Assembly (NCBI GenBank): GCA_963805625.1
Contig: CAWDVE010000010.1
Coordinates: 1,792,001-1,856,000, forward strand
DNA: 64,000 bases
From: an uncultured Candidatus Rokubacteria bacterium
Lineage (GTDB): Bacteria; Methylomirabilota; Methylomirabilia; Rokubacteriales; DASRDR01
Direction of reading: 5' to 3'
The position numbers and the translations under genes were made by a program. This document shows positions 44,400 through 58,363 of this stretch, piece after piece; the first letter of the stretch is position 1; every line of letters starts with the position of its first letter. The notes under the pieces were generated by a model. That model had not been told where the DNA came from and searched no databases. It was given only the letters and a program-made list of their open reading frames with translations.

Positions 44400-44664
44400 A
44401 CGTCGAGCTACATGGTGGCTCGCTCCGCCTCGGAGGATCGCCTCTTCTCCCACGAGCAGGCCCGACGCTTCGCCCTCGCCTATGCGGGCCTGACTCTCCT
44501 GGGTCTCGCGCTGGCCGTGCCATACTGGCGGCTCCTCGGCCTCCTGTAACCCGATCGGCCGGTAGGCAGCCTCATCCTGATCGGAGCCGGGGTCGAACGG
44601 TGTCGCCTGGGCGCAGATCGCGGCCTCGGAGTCGGACCAGTCAGCGGCAACCGTCCCCCTTGCC

Positions 44665-44693
44665 TTGACAGCCGCGGGACCCCTCCCTAGTAT
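44665..44693 (+). promoter_or_regulatory. Near-consensus sigma70 promoter upstream of fae
   Basis: TTGACA (44665-44670)-17 nt-TAGTAT (44688-44693). Confidence 0.7.
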
Positions 44694-44918
44694 TGGCGCC
44701 ACCCAGCGGTGGTCGACGATGTCCCGGGGATCGAAAACGGTCATAGAAGGCGAAGCTGGCAACATGCCCGGTCGCCGCGGAAGTGCGACACCGGCGAGTC
44801 GTCCTTACCCAGGCCCTGGCCTCAGGAAGGGGGTGCATGCGCGGGCAGCGGGCCGGCGTGCCGGAATCGACGTCCCACACAATGAGTGCGCTCTAGCTAC
44901 GGGAGGGATCGCATAGCT

Positions 44919-45419
44919 ATGGATAGTCACAGCTTCATGGTGGGTGAGTCACTGGTCGGCGAGGGCAACGAGGTCGCTCACATCGATCTGATCATCGGAT
45001 CGAAGAGCGGCCCGGCCGGCGCCACCTTCGCGCAGCGACTGGCCGACCAGACGGCAGGCCACAACGGCCTCCTGGCCGTGCTGGCGCCGAACGTTCCGGC
45101 CAAGCCGGACACGGTCATGTTCAACAAGGTCACGATCAAGGGCGCCGGCCAGGCGGTCCAGATGTTCGGTCCCGCCCAGGCCGCCGTGGCCAAGGCGGTC
45201 GTGGACAGCGTCGCCGACGGCACCATCCCCAAGGCCAGCGCCAACGACCTGTGCGTGATCGTGGGCGTGTTCATCCACTGGCAGGCCAAGGACAACAAGA
45301 AGATCTACGACTACAACTACCGGGCGACCAAGGAATCGATCGCGCGGGCGATGAAGGGTCAGCCCACCGTGGACTCCGTCCTCGCCCAGAAGGACTCAGC
45401 CAAGCACCCCTTCGCGTAG
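44919..45419 (+). CDS. fae: Formaldehyde-activating enzyme (H4MPT hydro-lyase)
   Basis: [25 protein letters not shown]...[19 protein letters not shown]...YNYRATK and HPF motifs. Confidence 0.95.
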
Positions 45420-45513
45420 GCGCGGCGTAACGTCGCCGCGCGGCCGGACGCCCCGCGGTCCCGCTCCCACGGGGCCGCGCGGGTCCCGGCCCGCCCTCGC
45501 CGAGGCAGATCCG

Positions 45514-45630
45514 ATGCGGCCGGAGACGTTCATCCTCATTCCCGGGCGGTCGACCGAGCAGGGCACGAGCGCCGGACCGGAGCACCTCGTCCCGGCCGAG
45601 CGCGTCGCGCTGGCCACGGCGGCGGGCTGA
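45514..45630 (+). pseudogene. 38-codon remnant with an FwdD/FmdD-like N-terminus (probable deletion scar)
   Basis: MRPETFILIPGRSTEQGTS resembles the FwdD start (ILITGRTxxQG), then an unrelated tail ending 8 nt before fhcD. Confidence 0.55.
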
Positions 45631-45638
45631 CCTCCGTC

Positions 45639-46538
45639 ATGGTCCGCGTCAACGGCGTGGAGATCGAGGACACCTTCGCCGAGGCGTTCCGGATGCGCGC
45701 GGCCCGCGCGATCGTGACCGCGGAGACGGCCGGCTGGGCCCGGACGGCCGCCTCGCTGGCGACGGGCTATGCGACATCGGTGATCGGATGCGACGCCGAG
45801 GCGGGCATCGAAGCCGACCTGCCGGCGACCGCGACGCCCGACGGCCGGCCCGGCGTGAGCCTTCTGGTCTTCGGGTTCAACACCGCGGCGCTCGGCAAGG
45901 CGCTGGTCAACCGCGTCGGCCAGTGCGTGATGACCTGCCCCACCACCGCGTGCTTCAACGGGCTCCTGCCCGGGGAGGAAACGGTGAAGGTGGGCGGGCT
46001 CCTCCGCTTCTTCGGAGATGGCCACCAGGCGAGCAAGAAGCTCGATGGGCGGCGATACTGGCGGGTACCGGTGATGGACGGCGAGTTCCTCTGCGAGGAC
46101 ACGTTCGGCGTCCAACGCGCGGTCGCGGGAGGCAATTTCCTGATCCTGGCCACGGATCAGGCCGCGGCGCTCCACGCCGCCGAGGCGGCCGCCCAGGCCA
46201 TCCGCGCGGTGCCCGGAGTGATCCTCCCCTTCCCGGGCGGCATCGTCAGAAGCGGCAGCAAGGTCGGATCGCGCTACAAGACGCTGCGGGCATCGACCAA
46301 CGAGGAGTACTGTCCCACGCTCCGCGGACAGGGCCGGAGCCGGCTGCCGATGAGCGTCCACGCGGTCTACGAGATCGTCATCGACGGTCTCGACGTGGGG
46401 GCCGTGGAGGCCGCCATGCGTGTCGGCGTCCGGGCCGCGTGCGGCCCGGGAGTGGTGCAGATCAGCGCCGGCAACTATGGCGGCAAGCTCGGCCAGTACC
46501 CGCTGCACCTCCACAAGATCCTCGGAACCGCACCATGA
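45639..46538 (+). CDS. fhcD: Formylmethanofuran:H4MPT formyltransferase (Ftr/FhcD)
   Basis: IEDTFAEAF, TSVIGCDAEAG, TPDGRPG, RSGSKVGS, YEIVIDG and SAGNYGGKLG motifs. Confidence 0.95.
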   Translation: MVRVNGVEIEDTFAEAFRMRAARAIVTAETAGWARTAASLATGYATSVIGCDAEAGIEADLPATATPDGRPGVSLLVFGFNTAALGKALVNRVGQCVMTCPTTACFNGLLPGEETVKVGGLLRFFGDGHQASKKLDGRRYWRVPVMDGEFLCEDTFGVQRAVAGGNFLILATDQAAALHAAEAAAQAIRAVPGVILPFPGGIVRSGSKVGSRYKTLRASTNEEYCPTLRGQGRSRLPMSVHAVYEIVIDGLDVGAVEAAMRVGVRAACGPGVVQISAGNYGGKLGQYPLHLHKILGTAP

Positions 46539-47107
46539 TCGTCGAGACGATCGTGACGACGCTGGACGAGGATGGAGAGGCGAACTTCGCGGCCATGGGT
46601 GTGGTCTGGGGCGAGGATCGCCTCGTGATCCGGCCCTACGTCGGCACGCGCACGTTCCGGAACCTCGTCCGTGCGCGCGAGGCCGTCGTCAACGTCACCG
46701 ACGACGTCCTGACTTTCGCGAAGAGCGCGCTCTCACGCGAGCGGTTCCCCGCCCGCCCCGCCGCGCGCGTTCGCGGGGTCATCCTGGCCGACGCGTGCCA
46801 CTGGCGCGAGGTCGCCGTCGAGGACGTATCGTTGCCCGAGTCCCGGCCGCCCGGCGGCGGCCGGGCCGACGTCGCCACGCGCGTGGTGGCGGGTGCGGTG
46901 GGACGGCCGTTCGCCGGGCTGTGCCGCGCCAAGCACGCCGTCGTGGAGGCGAGCATCCTCGCCTCGCGCGCGCGACGGCTGCCGCGGAACGAGGTGCTCG
47001 AGGGACTCGACCGCCTGGACCCGCTGGTGGACAGGACCGGCGGCCCGGCCGAGCGCGAAGCCATGGCGTACATCCGCGCCCACGTCGCGCGGCTGGTCGG
47101 CGACTGA
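46535..47107 (+). CDS. DUF447-family protein (H4MPT-cluster associated)
   Basis: ETIVTT...NFAAMG, RAKHAVVEASILASR and RTGGPAE motifs. Confidence 0.8.
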   Translation: MIVETIVTTLDEDGEANFAAMGVVWGEDRLVIRPYVGTRTFRNLVRAREAVVNVTDDVLTFAKSALSRERFPARPAARVRGVILADACHWREVAVEDVSLPESRPPGGGRADVATRVVAGAVGRPFAGLCRAKHAVVEASILASRARRLPRNEVLEGLDRLDPLVDRTGGPAEREAMAYIRAHVARLVGD

Positions 47108-47124: not shown

Positions 47125-48096
47125 ATGCGCACGATCGTCCAAGCGGGAGCGCGGCTCCATCTGGGGTTCCTCGACCTCAACGGCGCCTGCGGGCGGCGCT
47201 ACGGATCGATCGGCGTCACCCTCGAGCGGCCGCGCTGTACCGTGGAGGCGACCCCAGCCCCGCCCGGCAGGGCGACCGCGACGGGCGATCCCGTGGAGGT
47301 CATCCTCGAGCGTCTCGGCCTCGGAGATGGGACGGTCGGGGTGCGGTTGGTGGAGACGATCCCGGTCCACGCGGGGTTCGGCGCGGGCACCCAGGTCGCC
47401 CTGGCGGTCGCGCTGGCCGCGTCGCGGGCCGCGGGCCGTCCGACGCCGATCCGCGAGCTGGCGCGACAGCTCGGTCGAGGGCAGCGCTCCGGGATCGGCA
47501 TCGCGGCGTTCGAGCGCGGCGGGCTCGTGATCGATGCGGGGCATCCGGCGCAGGAGGACGGCCACGCGGTGGCCGGGGAGCCTGCGGGGCCGGAGCCTCC
47601 CCCGGTGATCTTCCAGCACCCCTTGCCCGACGACTGGCACTTCGTCCTTGCGACCCCACGCGCCGCGCCGGGGCTCTCCGGCCCGAGGGAGGAGCGGGCC
47701 TTCCGGGACCTCCCGCCCATGGACGCCGAGCGGGTGGGCCGGATCTGCCGCCTCACGCTGATGCAGGTCGCGCCGGCCGTGCTCGCCGGCGACATCCGGA
47801 CCTTCGGGGCGGCGATCACCGAGATCCAGGAAGTGGTCGGCGAGTACTTCGCGCCCCATCAGGGCGGCCGTTTCGCCACGGAGACCGGCTGCGCGGTGAC
47901 CGAGCTCGCCCTGGCGCGCGGCGCCCACGGGGTCGGGCAGAGCTCCTGGGGGCCGACGGTGTTCGCGCTGGTGCGAGGCGAGCCCGCCGCGCGCGTCCTG
48001 GCCGACGCGCTCCGCAGCGCGTTCGGAGATCGCCTGGCGTGGGTCGACGTCAGCCTCGCGCGGAACCGAGGCGCGTCGTGCCGGGAGGCGCTGTGA
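47125..48096 (+). CDS. mptG: Beta-ribofuranosylaminobenzene 5'-phosphate synthase (GHMP fold)
   Basis: ARLHLG, HAGFGAGTQ, RGQRSGIG and GQSSWGPT motifs. Confidence 0.9.
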   Translation: MRTIVQAGARLHLGFLDLNGACGRRYGSIGVTLERPRCTVEATPAPPGRATATGDPVEVILERLGLGDGTVGVRLVETIPVHAGFGAGTQVALAVALAASRAAGRPTPIRELARQLGRGQRSGIGIAAFERGGLVIDAGHPAQEDGHAVAGEPAGPEPPPVIFQHPLPDDWHFVLATPRAAPGLSGPREERAFRDLPPMDAERVGRICRLTLMQVAPAVLAGDIRTFGAAITEIQEVVGEYFAPHQGGRFATETGCAVTELALARGAHGVGQSSWGPTVFALVRGEPAARVLADALRSAFGDRLAWVDVSLARNRGASCREAL

Positions 48097-49082
48097 TCTC
48101 GGACCTGGGCCTGAACCGCCGCGCCGCGCGACTGGCCGATGCACTTGCGACCGACGCCCCGTTGCTGGGCGTGACGGTCACGGAGGTCGGGGGCGCACGG
48201 GTGCTCGACTGCGGCGTCCTGGCGGCCGGGGGGCTCGAGGCGGGGCGGCGGCTGGCGGAGATCTGTCTCGCCGGCCTGGCCACCGTGTCGTTCACGAGCG
48301 TCGATCTGGGTGGCCTCTGGCTCCCCGCGGTGGCTGTCACCACCGATCATCCGGTGACGGCCTGCCTGGCCAGCCAGTATGCCGGCTGGGCCATCGATCC
48401 GCCGGGATACTTCGCCATGGGCTCCGGACCGGCCCGCAGCGTCGCCCGGGTGGAGCGGGAGCTTTACGAGCGAATCGGCTACGCCGAGGCCGGAGACACC
48501 GCGGTGCTCGTGCTGGAGGGGCGGACGCTTCCGGACGAGAGAGTGGTGCAGTTCGTCGCCGACAAGTGCCGAGTCCAGCCGGAGGGCCTGCGGCTCCTCA
48601 TCGCCCCGACCGCCAGCATCGCCGGGTGCGTCCAGGTGGCCGCGCGCTCGGTCGAGACCGGGCTCCACAAGATGCTGGAGCTCGGGTTCGACGTCCGCAG
48701 CGTGCGGAGCGGGGCGGGTGTGTGTCCGCTGGCGCCGGTGGCGAAGAACGACCTTCGCGCCATCGGGTGGACGAACGACTGCATCCTCTACGGCACCCGC
48801 GCCTACTTCGCCGTCCACGCCGACGACGCGTTGGTCGCGGCGATGGTCGAGCGGCTGCCGGCCGCCACGTCGTCGGACTATGGCACCTCCTTCTACGAGA
48901 TCTTCAAGCGCGCCGGCAATCAATTCTACAAGATCGACCGGATGCTCTTCAGCCCGGCGGAGGTGGTCGTCAACAACCTCGACTCCGGGCGCGTCTTTCG
49001 CGCCGGCCGCCTCGACCCCGGCGTGCTGATGCGATCGCTGGGTGTTGCGGGGGTTGGCGGCCCTGGCGGGGGCGCGGCGTGA
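48093..49082 (+). CDS. mch: Methenyl-H4MPT cyclohydrolase
   Basis: CLASQYAGW, AMGSGPAR, QVAARSVETGLHK, TNDCILYG and FYKIDRMLFSPA motifs. Confidence 0.95.
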   Translation: MISDLGLNRRAARLADALATDAPLLGVTVTEVGGARVLDCGVLAAGGLEAGRRLAEICLAGLATVSFTSVDLGGLWLPAVAVTTDHPVTACLASQYAGWAIDPPGYFAMGSGPARSVARVERELYERIGYAEAGDTAVLVLEGRTLPDERVVQFVADKCRVQPEGLRLLIAPTASIAGCVQVAARSVETGLHKMLELGFDVRSVRSGAGVCPLAPVAKNDLRAIGWTNDCILYGTRAYFAVHADDALVAAMVERLPAATSSDYGTSFYEIFKRAGNQFYKIDRMLFSPAEVVVNNLDSGRVFRAGRLDPGVLMRSLGVAGVGGPGGGAA

Positions 49083-51066: not shown

Positions 51067-51578
51067 GCCAGTTCCGAGTGCGGATCGAGAAGGACTACAC
51101 GGTGTTCTGCGCCGGGCACTTCATCACTTACGACGGGCACGAATGCGAGCCGCTTCATGGCCACAACTACCGGGCGGCGGCGGCGCTCGAGGGCCCGCTC
51201 GACGAGAACGCGTACGTGTTCGACTTCACCCGGCTCAAGCGCGCGCTCAGGGCCATCGTCAACCGCCTCGACCACCGGATGCTGCTGCCGGCGAGGAGCG
51301 CGCTCATCCAGGTCACCCAATCGGGCGCCGAAGTCCAGGCAATCTACCGCGACAAGCGATACGTGTTTCCCTCGAGCGACGTGGTGCTCCTGCCCGTCCC
51401 CAACACCACCGCGGAGATGCTGGCGTGGTGGATCGCCCAGGAGCTCAAGCAGGACCTGGGGACGCTTCCGCCCGGCGTCACGGGGCTCGAGGTCGAGGTG
51501 GACGAGTCGTCCGGCCAGCGAGCCTTCTATCGGGAGACGCTCGGCGAGGGCGGTAACGAAGGGCCGGGACGCTCGTGA
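51063..51578 (+). CDS. 6-pyruvoyl-tetrahydropterin synthase family (COG0720), CExxHGH hybrid motif
   Basis: FCAGHF, CEPLHGHNY, LDHRML and TTAEMLA motifs. Confidence 0.88.
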   Translation: MSQFRVRIEKDYTVFCAGHFITYDGHECEPLHGHNYRAAAALEGPLDENAYVFDFTRLKRALRAIVNRLDHRMLLPARSALIQVTQSGAEVQAIYRDKRYVFPSSDVVLLPVPNTTAEMLAWWIAQELKQDLGTLPPGVTGLEVEVDESSGQRAFYRETLGEGGNEGPGRS

Positions 51579-53035
51579 CGTGGCCATCGGTCGTCTACCT
51601 CGGGCTCGGCTCGAACGTGGGTGACCGTCAGAGCAACCTGATCGAGGCGCTCCAGAGCCTCCGGGCGCACGTCTTCATCGAGCAGATCTCGCCGGTCTAC
51701 GAGACCGAGCCGGCGTACGTGACCGACCAGCCCCGCTTTCTGAACCTCGCGGTGAAGGGTGTGACCTCGCTCGAGCCCGCCGAGCTCCTGACCGTGGCCA
51801 AGCGGATCGAGTCCCGGATGGGGCGGCGCCCCGGCGAGCGATACGGCCCGCGGCCGATCGACATCGACATCCTCTTCTACGGCGACCGCGTGATCCGCAC
51901 CGAGACGCTCGAGGTGCCGCACCCGCGCGTTGCCGAGCGCGGCTTCGTCCTCGTCCCGCTTCACGACATCGCCCCGGGCCTCCGGCACCCGGAGCTCGGA
52001 CGCACGGTCGCCGAGCTCCTCGCCTCCCTCGGGGAGACGCGCGGCATCGTCCGGGTCGAGCGGGGCCTGACGGCGCGGCTCGAGCGTGACGTGCAGGAGG
52101 AGTCTCCGTCCGCCCGCCTCAGGCTCGACCAGACGGGGGTGACGGGTCTCCACCGCATCATCCGTCTCTCCGAGGGCGGCGGTCTCTTCTACGCGACGCT
52201 CGATCTCTTCGTCGAGCTGCCGGCCGACCAGAAGGGCGCCCACATGTCGCGCTTCAGCGACACCGTGGAGGAGGTGCTCGAGGACCTCGGCGAGTTCACG
52301 GCCCCGATGATCGAGACGCTCGCCGAGCGCATCGCGCGGGCCCTGACCGTCGGGCACCGGGCCGAGCGCGCGGACGTGGAGATCCGGGCCCAGTTCCCGC
52401 TCGAGCGCCGCGCGCCGATCTCCGGCAAGCCCTCGCAGGAGCTGTACACGCTGATCGGCATCGCCGCCGCCAACCCCCGCCGCGCGGTCCAGCTGATCGG
52501 CGTGGAGGCGGAGGGGATGATGGCGTGCCCCTGCGCCCAGGAGATGGTCCGCGCGCAGGCGGAAGCCCGACTGCTCGAGCACGGCCTGACGCCGGAGCTC
52601 GCCGAGCAGGTGCTGTCGCTAGTCCCGGTCGCGACCCACAATCAGCGTGGGCGCGGCCGCCTCCTGGTCGGCGCCGACCGCGCGCTCCGCGCCGAGGACC
52701 TGGTCGAGATCGTCGAGGGCTCGATGAGCTCCGAGAACTACGACCTCCTGAAGCGGCCGGACGAGCTCTTCGTCGTGGAGAAGGCGCACCGCCATCCTCG
52801 CTTCGTCGAGGACACCGTTCGCGAGATGCTCCGGAGCTTCGTGAACACCTACCCCGAGCTGCCGGACGACGCCTACGTCCACGCCCGGCAGGTGAACATG
52901 GAGACGATCCACAAGCACGATGTCTTCGCCCAGCGCGGCGGGCAGCTCGGCGAGATTCGGGGCGAGCTCCTCGACGGCAAGCCGCGCGGCAGCACCCCGC
53001 TCCAGGCGTGGCTCTCGGCCCGGCTCGAGGGATGA
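51575..53035 (+). CDS. Fusion of FolK (HPPK) and a FolE2/MptA-family GTP cyclohydrolase
   Basis: N-terminal YLGLGSNVGDR, GPRPIDIDIL, VPHPR; C-terminal KGAHMSRF, MACPC, THNQR, LLKRPDE, PRFVED, ETIHKH. Confidence 0.9.
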   Translation: MTWPSVVYLGLGSNVGDRQSNLIEALQSLRAHVFIEQISPVYETEPAYVTDQPRFLNLAVKGVTSLEPAELLTVAKRIESRMGRRPGERYGPRPIDIDILFYGDRVIRTETLEVPHPRVAERGFVLVPLHDIAPGLRHPELGRTVAELLASLGETRGIVRVERGLTARLERDVQEESPSARLRLDQTGVTGLHRIIRLSEGGGLFYATLDLFVELPADQKGAHMSRFSDTVEEVLEDLGEFTAPMIETLAERIARALTVGHRAERADVEIRAQFPLERRAPISGKPSQELYTLIGIAAANPRRAVQLIGVEAEGMMACPCAQEMVRAQAEARLLEHGLTPELAEQVLSLVPVATHNQRGRGRLLVGADRALRAEDLVEIVEGSMSSENYDLLKRPDELFVVEKAHRHPRFVEDTVREMLRSFVNTYPELPDDAYVHARQVNMETIHKHDVFAQRGGQLGEIRGELLDGKPRGSTPLQAWLSARLEG

Positions 53036-55744: not shown

Positions 55745-58255
55745 CTACTCGCTCGCGGCGTTGCTGCGCTGGGCTTGCATCAGCTTCTTCTCGTCCTCCG
55801 GTGAGAGCTTCGGCCGATCGATGCTGAGCATCACCTTGTTGAGCTTGCCCGTGAACCGGAATGGTATCTGGTAGTCCTGGTCGTTCACCGGCGTGCCCGT
55901 GTCGGCGCCCACGTCGAGGTTTTCGTCCCACTGTAGGATCAGCGGGATCGTCTTTTCCATCTTCTGGGTGGCGACGGCCTGACCGTCCACCTTGAGCACT
56001 CCGGTGCCGCTGCGGCCGATGCCGCTCAGGTTGTTGAACGCAAGGGTACCAATCCCCAGGCCGTCGTACTTGAAGTCGAACTCGAGCGTGTGCATACCCG
56101 GCGTGAGCTCCGGCCCCTCCCAGCGGATCCGCTGCAGGTCGACCAGATTCCAGAGGAACACCGGCTTGTTCTTCAGCACGTAGAAGCCGTAGCCAGCGAA
56201 GCGGCCCCCCTGGGTGATGAGCATGCCCTCGGCGCCGCCCTGCGGAATCTCGACCTCGGCCTTGAAGTTATACGACGAGTTGAGGATGCTCGGCGCGTCG
56301 CCGTTCGGTGTGCCCGTGAACTCGCGGGTCCAGGTGAACACGTTGCGGCCGGCGGTGATGCTCGGGCGCGGCGTGACGAGTCGGCTCGCGATCGAGGCGT
56401 CGAGCGGCATGACCTGGTACTTCTTTGCCTCGGCCCAGAAGAGCTTCTCCATCTCCTTGACCTTGGCGGGGTTCTTGGCCGCGACGTCGTTCGACTGGGT
56501 CCAGTCCTTCCCGAGGTCGTACAGCTCCCACGTCGCCTTGGACGGATTGAGATTGGCCGGGCCGAACGTCACCCACGGCGGGCGCGTCACCTTGGCGCTG
56601 GCGATCCAGCCGTCGTGGTAGATCGCGTAGTTACCGAACATCTCGAAGTACTGGGTCTTGTGCTTCGACGGCGCCTTCTCGTTGGGCTTGTCGAACGTGT
56701 AGAGCATGCTGACGCCCTCGATCGGGCTTTGCTTGATCCCGTCGACGACCTTGGGCTGGCGGATCCCAGCCGCCTCGAGGATCGTCGGCACGACGTCAAT
56801 CACGTGGTGAAACTGGTTGCGGATGCCGCCCTTGTCCTTGATCACCTTCGGCCAGGAGATCGCCATGCCCTGGCGAATGCCTCCGAAGTGAGATGAGATC
56901 TGCTTCGTCCAGGAGAACGGCGAGTCGAGCGCCCACGACCACGGCACCGCCATGTGATTGTACGTGCGGTCGGAGCCCCAGGCGTCGTAGAAGTTCTTGA
57001 GCTGCACTTCGACCGGCACCTCGACGCCGTTGAACATCGCGACCTCGTTCGGCGTGCCCACCAGCGTGCCCTCGGCGCTGCCGCCGTTGTCGCCGCTGAT
57101 GTAGATGATCAGCGTGTTCTCGAGCTTGCCCAAATCCTCGATCGCCTGGATCACCCGGCCGATCTCGTGATCCGTGTAGGCGAGGTACGCCGCGTACACA
57201 TCGACCTGGCGGAGGAACATCTTCTTTTCATCGGCCGACAGCCCGTCCCAGCGCTTCAGCAGGTTGTCCGGCCACGCCGTGAGCTTGGCGGTCTGCGGGA
57301 TCACGCCGAGCTTCTTCTGGTTCTCGAAGATCTGCTCGCGGAGCGCGTTCCACCCCTTGTCGAAGAGATGCATGTCGCTGATCTTCTTGATCCATTCCGG
57401 GGTTGGGTGATGTGGCGCATGCGTGCCGCCGGGCGCGTACTTCACGAAGAACGGCTGCTCCGGCGTGAGGGTGTTGATGCGTTGCATGTACGCGATGGCT
57501 TCGTCCGCCATCGCCGTCGTCAGGTTGTAGCCCGGATTGCCCGAGAACGGGTAGATCGATGTCGTGTTGCGGACGAGGTTCGCCGGCTGCCACTGGTTGG
57601 TGTCCCCGCCCATGAACCCGTAGAAATACTCGAAGCCCATCCCGATGGGCCACTGGTCGAACGGCCCGTCCTGGCTCGCTTGAAAGGCCGGGGTGTTGTG
57701 GTTCTTCCCGAACCACGACGTCCGGTAGCCGTTGTCCTTCAGGATCTTGCCGATCGTCGCCTTGTCTCTAGTGATGATGCTGTCGTAGCCCGGGAAGCCC
57801 GTCGCCTGCTCCGAGATCACACCGAAGCCGACGGAGTGATGGTTGCGCCCGGTGATGAGCGCCGCGCGGGTGGGCGAGCAGAGGGCCGTGGAGTGGAAGT
57901 TCGTGTAGCGGAGGCCGTTGTTGGCGATCCGGTCGAGCGCCGGCGTGGGGATCACGCCACCGAACGTGCTCGGGGCCCCGAAGCCGACGTCGTCCGTGAT
58001 GATGAGCAGCACGTTCGGCGCGTTCTTGGGCGGCATTATGCGCGGTGCCCAGTAGGGCTTCGACTGCGCGGCGTTGCGCTCGATCCTGCCGCCGAACTTC
58101 GCCGGCGGCGCCGGAATCTGGTCGCCCTGGATCGTCGTCGTCGCGCTGGGGGAGCCGGGCACCCCCGTCACATTCTGGGCGAAGCTCGGCTCGCCGAGGA
58201 GTCCGACGGACGCGGCCAATGCCGCGCCGATCACGATTCGCATGCTTGTTCTCAT
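55745..58255 (-). CDS. Secreted arylsulfatase (Cys-type, formylglycine-dependent)
   Basis: Signal peptide, PNVLLIITDDVG, LCSPTRAALITGR, FGKNH and SGDNG motifs. Confidence 0.92.
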   Translation of the reverse strand: MRTSMRIVIGAALAASVGLLGEPSFAQNVTGVPGSPSATTTIQGDQIPAPPAKFGGRIERNAAQSKPYWAPRIMPPKNAPNVLLIITDDVGFGAPSTFGGVIPTPALDRIANNGLRYTNFHSTALCSPTRAALITGRNHHSVGFGVISEQATGFPGYDSIITRDKATIGKILKDNGYRTSWFGKNHNTPAFQASQDGPFDQWPIGMGFEYFYGFMGGDTNQWQPANLVRNTTSIYPFSGNPGYNLTTAMADEAIAYMQRINTLTPEQPFFVKYAPGGTHAPHHPTPEWIKKISDMHLFDKGWNALREQIFENQKKLGVIPQTAKLTAWPDNLLKRWDGLSADEKKMFLRQVDVYAAYLAYTDHEIGRVIQAIEDLGKLENTLIIYISGDNGGSAEGTLVGTPNEVAMFNGVEVPVEVQLKNFYDAWGSDRTYNHMAVPWSWALDSPFSWTKQISSHFGGIRQGMAISWPKVIKDKGGIRNQFHHVIDVVPTILEAAGIRQPKVVDGIKQSPIEGVSMLYTFDKPNEKAPSKHKTQYFEMFGNYAIYHDGWIASAKVTRPPWVTFGPANLNPSKATWELYDLGKDWTQSNDVAAKNPAKVKEMEKLFWAEAKKYQVMPLDASIASRLVTPRPSITAGRNVFTWTREFTGTPNGDAPSILNSSYNFKAEVEIPQGGAEGMLITQGGRFAGYGFYVLKNKPVFLWNLVDLQRIRWEGPELTPGMHTLEFDFKYDGLGIGTLAFNNLSGIGRSGTGVLKVDGQAVATQKMEKTIPLILQWDENLDVGADTGTPVNDQDYQIPFRFTGKLNKVMLSIDRPKLSPEDEKKLMQAQRSNAASE

Positions 58256-58363
58256 TTCCCCTCCCGATCTTGGACGGTGCGGCTGCGTTCTCTTCTCGAT
58301 CTTCACATGCACGTACCGCCTCCTCGCGAACACCGGCGCCACGGCCAGCCCGCGCCCTGGCGA

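Follow-up and report, generated by a model that had tools for sequence, protein, structure and literature searches.

A putative fwdD/fwdA deletion scar in the formaldehyde oxidation cluster of a Rokubacteria genome and a second, probably selenocysteine-containing, formylmethanofuran dehydrogenase set

Formylmethanofuran dehydrogenases, Fhc and deletion scars

Gene-deletion scars are characterized by the fusion of the outer ends of the lost genes between intact neighbours, leaving a remnant that decays to a variable extent among relatives. The locus described here belongs to this type. It lies in a window of 64,000 nucleotides (contig CAWDVE010000010.1 of an uncultured Candidatus Rokubacteria bacterium), within a cluster for tetrahydromethanopterin (H4MPT)-linked formaldehyde oxidation. 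Nothing in it is categorically different from known scars, although two scars are present in one operon and both keep the start/stop geometry to the next gene.

Sec-FwdB, the selenocysteine form of FwdB, constitutes an established selenoprotein family (PMC13188914, PMC9312934). For instance, Methanopyrus kandleri and Methanococcus maripaludis carry two fwd sets, with Cys and UGA in the UHxP motif (PMC13188914), and methanogens keep the Cys form as a selenium-free backup (PMC4807772, PMC11097638). The planctomycete P2 possesses a Sec fmdB in an fmdD-B-A-C operon and the Cys form is also present (PMC4807772). In the Fhc complex, FhcB is devoid of the Fe-S domain and the catalytic Cys, and FwdD is absent (PMC6926001). 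With respect to Rokubacteria, the genomes covered in PMC5103831 were described as having no H4MPT route and as unable to oxidise formaldehyde by this means. A selenoproteome survey of a Methylomirabilota genome, cited in PMC13188914, may tabulate a protein of the kind described below; at the level of titles and beginnings of abstracts (partial coverage), no account of the deletion or of a Sec-FwdB in Rokubacteria was found.

Our cluster occupies the same position in the H4MPT route as the Fhc genes (fhcBADC) of Methylorubrum extorquens, and its intact version shares the order A before D. Compared with archaeal FwdABCD (PDB 5T5I, 8RJA, 9SFI, 7BKB), the full-length FwdD encoded by an intact relative, genome G011, matches five solved FwdD chains (E 3.6e-15 to 7e-7), and its FwdB, which keeps the N-terminal Cys motif, matches with E values of about 1e-116 to 1e-98; in the window cluster, 21 + 17 codons are all that remains of such a complex. 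In contrast to the archaeal enzymes, those described here are bacterial and linked to fae, ftr and mch, so they are likely to be oxidative, and with 58.5 and 77.1 bits neither FwdD type attains the 175 bits required by the archaeal tungsten model NF042908. As in the methanogen and planctomycete pairs, Cys and TGA-containing fwd sets coexist within the genus. However, while methanogens maintain the Cys form as a backup, this form has been deleted in nine of the 11 genomes of the genus that carry the cluster. Taken alone, the scar is an ordinary relic left by a known process, and the Cys/Sec enzyme pair is also of a known kind. Unlike the Rokubacteria genomes of PMC5103831, those of this genus contain ftr in 11 of 15 cases (the genome studied and 10 of the other 14); in the whole set of 61 genomes there are 12, the remaining one being G019, of the same family.

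The scar between fae and ftr

The features of the cluster are the following:

44665..44693, + strand: sigma-70-like promoter upstream of fae (10/12 matches; 1 found vs 0.0 +/- 0.1 in shuffles)
44919..45419, + strand: fae, formaldehyde-activating enzyme, intact (PF08714, TIGR03126)
45420..45491, + strand: two GC-rich hairpins after the fae stop, with no U-tract (10 sequences, 21 consensus pairs, 4 with two-sided change)
45514..45630, + strand: 38-codon scar ORF plus TGA (direct translation, in agreement with the 38 residues previously described)
45514..45576, + strand: fwdD remnant, start codon and codons 1-21 (match to intact loci, codon alignment)
45577..45630, + strand: fwdA remnant, final 17 codons plus TGA, fused in frame (match to intact loci, codon alignment)
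45639..46538, + strand: ftr/fhcD, formyltransferase, intact (PF01913/PF02741, TIGR03119)
46535..47107, + strand: DUF447 gene (family match)
47125..48096, + strand: gene of the beta-RFAP synthase family (GHMP fold), whose stop overlaps the old fwdC start (family match)
48093..48101, + strand: second scar, three fwdC start codons fused in frame to mch codon 2 (comparison with G011)
48093..49082, + strand: mch, cyclohydrolase (family match; start inferred)

Since a promoter precedes fae and no intrinsic terminator was detected in the region 44600-45700, that is, before ftr, the genes fae and ftr and the scar between them are likely to be part of one transcript. In the RNA run X15, a well-matching contig covers fae only, up to position 45424. 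The two hairpins are present in intact and deleted loci alike and are therefore older than the deletion; they could possibly stabilise the fae message.

A preliminary description of this DNA reported a 38-codon ORF ending 8 nt before fhcD, and both the translation and the coordinates agree with it, the ATG of ftr/fhcD being located at 45639. Taken by itself, the 38-mer has no matches in Pfam, NCBIfam or PDB, and in a search of its own genome the self-match was the only one among the matches listed (next E 0.05). A FwdD protein in its own right would require a domain of about 110-130 residues and a family match, and this candidate was discarded for a product of 38 residues that has none.

The resemblance of the two halves to fwdD and fwdA exceeds chance once relatives are compared. 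The first 63 nt, aligned without gaps, share 57, 55, 53 and 47 positions with the fwdD starts of the four loci that hold one, while the next-best places give 33-36 of 63; the FwdD-like character previously attributed to the N-terminal half is thus borne out. The final 54 nt agree with the end of fwdA at 43, 40 and 36 positions in loci L155, L054 and L156, above a background of 30-32 of 54 in these three of the six loci compared. In G011, G004 and G019 the ungapped match (32-34 of 54) is not above background, the tail of fwdA having indels or being divergent; when gaps are allowed, BLAST aligns the 3' half of the scar with the end of fwdA in G011 and G004, whereas in G019 it does not. The breakpoint, whose mapping on intact loci had been proposed as a check, falls best after 45575 or 45576 in 12 of 12 pairings (three fwdD and four fwdA donors), and junction microhomology is nothing convincing, 1 nt at most. 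The ORF is best read as the first 21 codons of fwdD fused, without a shift of frame, to the 17 final codons of fwdA. The in-frame fusion between the fwdD start and the end of the gene before fhcD, as previously postulated, is consequently upheld, and fwdA is the gene in question.

The order fae-fwdD-fwdB-fwdA-ftr is intact in G011, G004 and G019, the complete gene order is also found in G193, which belongs to another family, and G025 contains fae-fwdD-B-A on shorter contigs. Therefore, the deleted state is likely to be derived. In addition, fwdD-B-A precedes ftr in L054, as fwdA does in L155 and L156. The starts of fwdD and ftr are separated by 3459, 3501 and 3473 nt in G011, G004 and G019, respectively, and by 3442 nt in L054, but by 125 nt in the window, where fwdD-B-A, about 3.3 kb, is missing between intact neighbours; several kb, probably D-B-A, was the loss that the preliminary description had estimated. 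The ancestral cluster can be reconstructed as fae-fwdD-fwdB-fwdA-ftr-DUF447-RFAP synthase-fwdC-mch. Sets comprising FwdD and FwdB occur widely among bacteria (63 loci). The FwdB of the lost type keeps the Fe-S motif, the Cys-His pair and the Arg, none of which is present in FhcB (PMC6926001). In G011, G004, G019, G025 and L054 the residue at the metal-ligand position is a Cys that aligns with Cys118 of PDB 5T5I, with His119, Arg288 and the Fe-S cysteines also conserved (numbering from PMC6926001).

The assemblies of G014, G004 and G019 are frameshifted in ordinary genes, and their reading frames were given little weight. In G004 (L031:13062-18524) the order is intact, but fwdA, ftr, fwdC, mch and rimK contain many frameshifts, and between ftr and fwdC there is neither a DUF447 gene nor one for RFAP synthase, either by assembly error or by decay.

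An assembly artefact at the junction was also considered. The contig starts with about 140 kb of 43-62% GC DNA, versus 69% in the host, and is probably chimeric there, which lowers confidence in the assembly as a whole without bearing on this junction. Contigs of the runs X1, X4 and X11, which come from three different studies (three of eight runs), bridge the junction without gaps and with at least 31 letters on each side, and the identical junction is present in G013, L157 and L158, as well as, in a more decayed form, in G014. Therefore, a misassembly, whose exclusion had been suggested as a check, has a negligible probability. X7 and X8 cover the junction uninformatively and the contigs of X2 and X10 stop short, so that none of them was counted as evidence. 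At position 45576, C replaces A in every run with a listed call, and the change is synonymous.

The atypical start of the contig (G000:C10:1-140000), located outside the window, contains a second, frameshifted ftr that is 42-47% identical to that of the window, together with purH, grpE-dnaK-dnaJ, a TIGR01177 methyltransferase-like gene and genes for TPR proteins. It has the appearance of foreign DNA, possibly from a methanogen, that was attached by misassembly.

The remnant peptide and its reading frame

Gene callers record eight similar proteins of 38-41 amino acids plus one cluster mate, and 20 of the 38 columns are invariant in eleven aligned scar peptides, as could be expected if the fusion had become a new functional small protein. 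However, these copies come from very close kin and were found only through being called as proteins, a set that is biased to open frames and was excluded from the frame counts. In three copies with the same junction, nonsynonymous changes outnumber synonymous ones (3/2, 3/1 and 6/1), while the figures for ftr in the same comparisons are 4/8, 1/4 and 3/8; the contrast gave p values of 0.05 and 0.59 in the two pairs tested, with small counts. Moreover, the variation affects residues that are conserved in FwdD, and more distant members of the genus show unrelated scar peptides or none, with remnants of 7, 11 or 31 codons, inserted DNA or no start codon. A small protein of this kind is thus highly unlikely, and the peptide appears to be drifting. 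The occurrence of the same ORF in relatives, which the preliminary description had regarded as contrary to a deletion scar, was indeed found, but it does not have this consequence, the ORF being shared by descent while its peptide seems to drift. That the ORF is still open is mainly due to the origin of both ends in old coding sequence and to the inheritance of a single in-frame junction.

A different possibility is that the remnant is a relic whose frame, rather than its peptide, is under selection: ribosomes would load at the old fwdD start, stop at the fwdA TGA and re-initiate at ftr 8-9 nt further on. In this case the peptide sequence would be irrelevant, and the proposal would be added to the deletion origin without replacing it. 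Five scars that differ in length (38, 41, 31, 11 and 7 codons in G000/L158, L157, G012, G003 and G002, respectively) have the fwdD ATG in the same frame as the old TGA; in G005 and G008 this TGA shares its frame with other starts, and in G013 a shift has brought the fwdD ATG into the frame of ftr itself. The TGA is located 6-10 nt before ftr in 12 of 12 scar loci, the only insertion shared among copies of the scar peptide is 9 nt long (three codons), the ORF is free of indels in the run contigs examined, and mch has also retained an overlapping start. On the other hand, an in-frame start in five of the eight distinct scars that keep the ATG corresponds to p 0.088 against a chance of one-third, or to p 0.045 after dropping the error-rich G014, the loci being related in both cases; G009 has no start codon, L160 has lost the ATG, and in-frame starts come easily in DNA with 70% GC. 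The ribosome-binding sites of the scar and of ftr are of similar strength (-5.9 and -6.7 kcal/mol, respectively), so a role of the scar as the source of a better site is unsupported. A function of the scar as a leader delivering ribosomes to ftr is therefore weakly supported, and we consider selection on the frame possible but doubtful.

The frame shift of G013 (L033:7095-7230) results from a gain of 2 nt in the scar plus 2 nt in the spacer. It might yield an N-terminally extended Ftr, or it may be an assembly error.

The fwdC scar, the second operon and the history of the loss

The deletion of fwdD-B-A is not the only one in the cluster. In intact loci fwdC adjoins mch upstream, and it is absent in eight of eight deleted loci with a readable gap (G003, whose contig ends before the gap, was left out of this count). 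At this site G011 has 806 nt while the window has 9, about 0.8 kb of fwdC having been removed together with the mch ATG. Comparison of the loci indicates that fwdC was lost at a site separate from that of fwdD-B-A, a loss missed in the earlier work, and mch is now likely to be translated from the captured fwdC GTG, which overlaps the upstream stop. G008 retains the mch ATG, and thus the fwdC/mch junctions differ among relatives.

The genome also contains, on contig C14, a second complete fwdDBAC operon that had been overlooked. Its FwdA, FwdB and FwdC exceed the NCBIfam cut-offs and fwdD is located upstream; no FwdF/FwdG polyferredoxins were recognised by eye among the ORFs beside the operon. 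The kept and lost sets share a FwdD subunit and a FwdB with N-terminal Fe-S cysteines, with Cys/Sec-His and Arg at the active site, but they are only 40-63% identical. The presence of FwdD, Fe-S cysteines and a catalytic Cys/Sec in both led to the rejection of either set as a cofactor-less Fhc. Regarding the archaeal-style ancestor, rather than an Fhc, that the preliminary description had proposed, these dehydrogenase-type features agree with it; nevertheless, the type is not only ancestral, since the second set has been kept.

In the fwdB of C14 type, an in-frame TGA precedes HGP at the metal-ligand site in eight of eight second-set copies of the genus. Synonymous variation after the TGA affects 2 of 16 codons, versus 56 of 124 elsewhere (39/93 upstream, 17/31 downstream; p 0.014, for related sequences). 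In this stretch rare A/T-ending codons are invariant and GC3 is 0.82 vs 0.96. A SECIS-like hairpin, in which synonymous sites are frozen, is predicted about 20-35 nt past the UGA. The gene selA was detected in 21 of 21 genomes of the family, and a tRNA-Sec with a TCA anticodon is present in the genome studied, clustered with selA and selB (G000:C21:223609-228224). In this assembly a frameshift within a C7-G5 run interrupts selB, and this is likely to be an assembly error. We infer that the TGA would be read as selenocysteine by means of the SECIS hairpin. The annotation of such loci is prone to a trap: pipelines end the kept fwdB at the TGA and label the scar as a hypothetical protein.

A gene for a formate-dehydrogenase-like molybdopterin enzyme, also with a TGA before HGP, is found in the 11 kb surrounding the Sec fwd operon of three out of seven relatives (L116 of G014, L119 of G002 and L122 of G008), and the 54 nt from the TGA are identical in the three genes.

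The genes mch and ftr, mtd (just outside the window) and those for H4MPT and methanofuran biosynthesis are intact. According to pathway knowledge, formaldehyde would be converted by Fae, Mtd, Mch and Ftr into formyl-methanofuran. The Sec-type FwdABCD encoded on C14, fed in trans by the Ftr of the cluster, could then oxidise formyl-methanofuran to CO2, so that the Sec enzyme would take over the last step of H4MPT-linked formaldehyde oxidation. Redundancy with this isozyme may have permitted the loss of the Cys set. A PQQ alcohol dehydrogenase was not found at E<=1e-50.

Seven of the nine genomes that have lost the Cys set hold the Sec set, and G004 has both, while G011 (83% complete) and G019 show the Cys set alone. 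In two deleted genomes, G005 (98% complete) and G012 (88%), no FwdA, FwdB or FwdC was found; apparently, the loss may occur without a backup, or the set of these genomes was left unassembled. The case of these two genomes would also be compatible with a different physiology, in which the deletion took the only enzyme serving the cluster, the C14 operon is silent or used otherwise, and the H4MPT route ends at formyl-H4MPT or decays. The frameshift in selB and the fact that the two sets are merely 40-63% identical point in the same direction. However, ftr, mch, mtd and the biosynthetic genes for methanofuran and H4MPT are intact, ftr shows more synonymous than nonsynonymous change, and the second operon is 81-99% conserved across eight genomes with an invariant TGA context. 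The loss of a sole enzyme is thus improbable. The sequences are best described by a differential loss in which one member of a Cys/Sec isozyme pair disappeared, and the account as a whole, in which a nonfunctional fwdD/fwdA deletion scar has formed, fwdC has also been lost and the Sec set of C14 takes over, is regarded as quite probable.

The number of deletion events is a separate matter. In an AU test with seven concatenated cluster genes the monophyly of the nine deleted loci was not rejected (p-AU 0.43), and the node placing the intact G011 among the deleted loci has a support of 25/45. In L160 the part of fwdD that is left is larger, and that of fwdA smaller, than in the window; this may reflect deletions that occurred independently, or an initially larger scar that was trimmed later. 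A tree based on rpoB was abandoned, as no rpoB match was obtained for G011 and G012, and G013, G014 and G019 did not belong to the genomes sampled for it. FwdB was matched in 33 of 200 genomes of the phylum, and in a tree of 39 FwdB the Sec copies of the genus group together in a separate clade, which does not include the TGA-bearing copies found in family f13 of the same class.

The graded series of scars records how a genus drops the Cys isozyme and keeps the Sec one, the reverse of a selenium-free backup, and this direction of loss is likely to leave a selenium-dependent enzyme as the only copy. If this is true, formaldehyde oxidation in these soil bacteria depends on selenium. A bolder version holds that the genus repeatedly deleted the Cys enzyme, making formaldehyde oxidation selenium-dependent, that deletions survive where an in-frame mini-ORF or a captured start passes ribosomes on, and that the scar is now a translational leader; this combination seems rather unlikely to us.

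Other FwdB arrangements were observed outside the genus. In family f13, loci L186 (G101), L188 (G097) and L192 (G109) contain a Cys fwdDBA-ftr-fwdC cluster and an extra fwdD-fwdB pair, whose fwdB has a TGA at the ligand site; neither fwdA nor fwdC accompanies it in the stretch examined, and the extra FwdD-FwdB pair might swap into the Cys complex. L189 (G079) and L190 (G112) encode divergent FwdB paralogues that have lost the Cys-His motif, with no fwdD in the stretch, a degeneration resembling that of FhcB. The closest FwdD loci to a query from the same genus are 100, 84 and 75% identical, and one at 83%, titled Actinomycetota, may be misbinned.

Within the window, an HPPK (FolK) domain is fused to a FolE2-type GTP cyclohydrolase in one ORF (51575-53035), and those relatives whose loci extend that far carry the fusion at full length. 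An 865-codon gene, sulfatase-like by eye, lies on the - strand (55748-58342) amid H4MPT and methanofuran biosynthesis genes. Two genes that follow the Sec fwd operon (G000:C14:160659-162980) may encode a class I aldolase and a phosphofructokinase.
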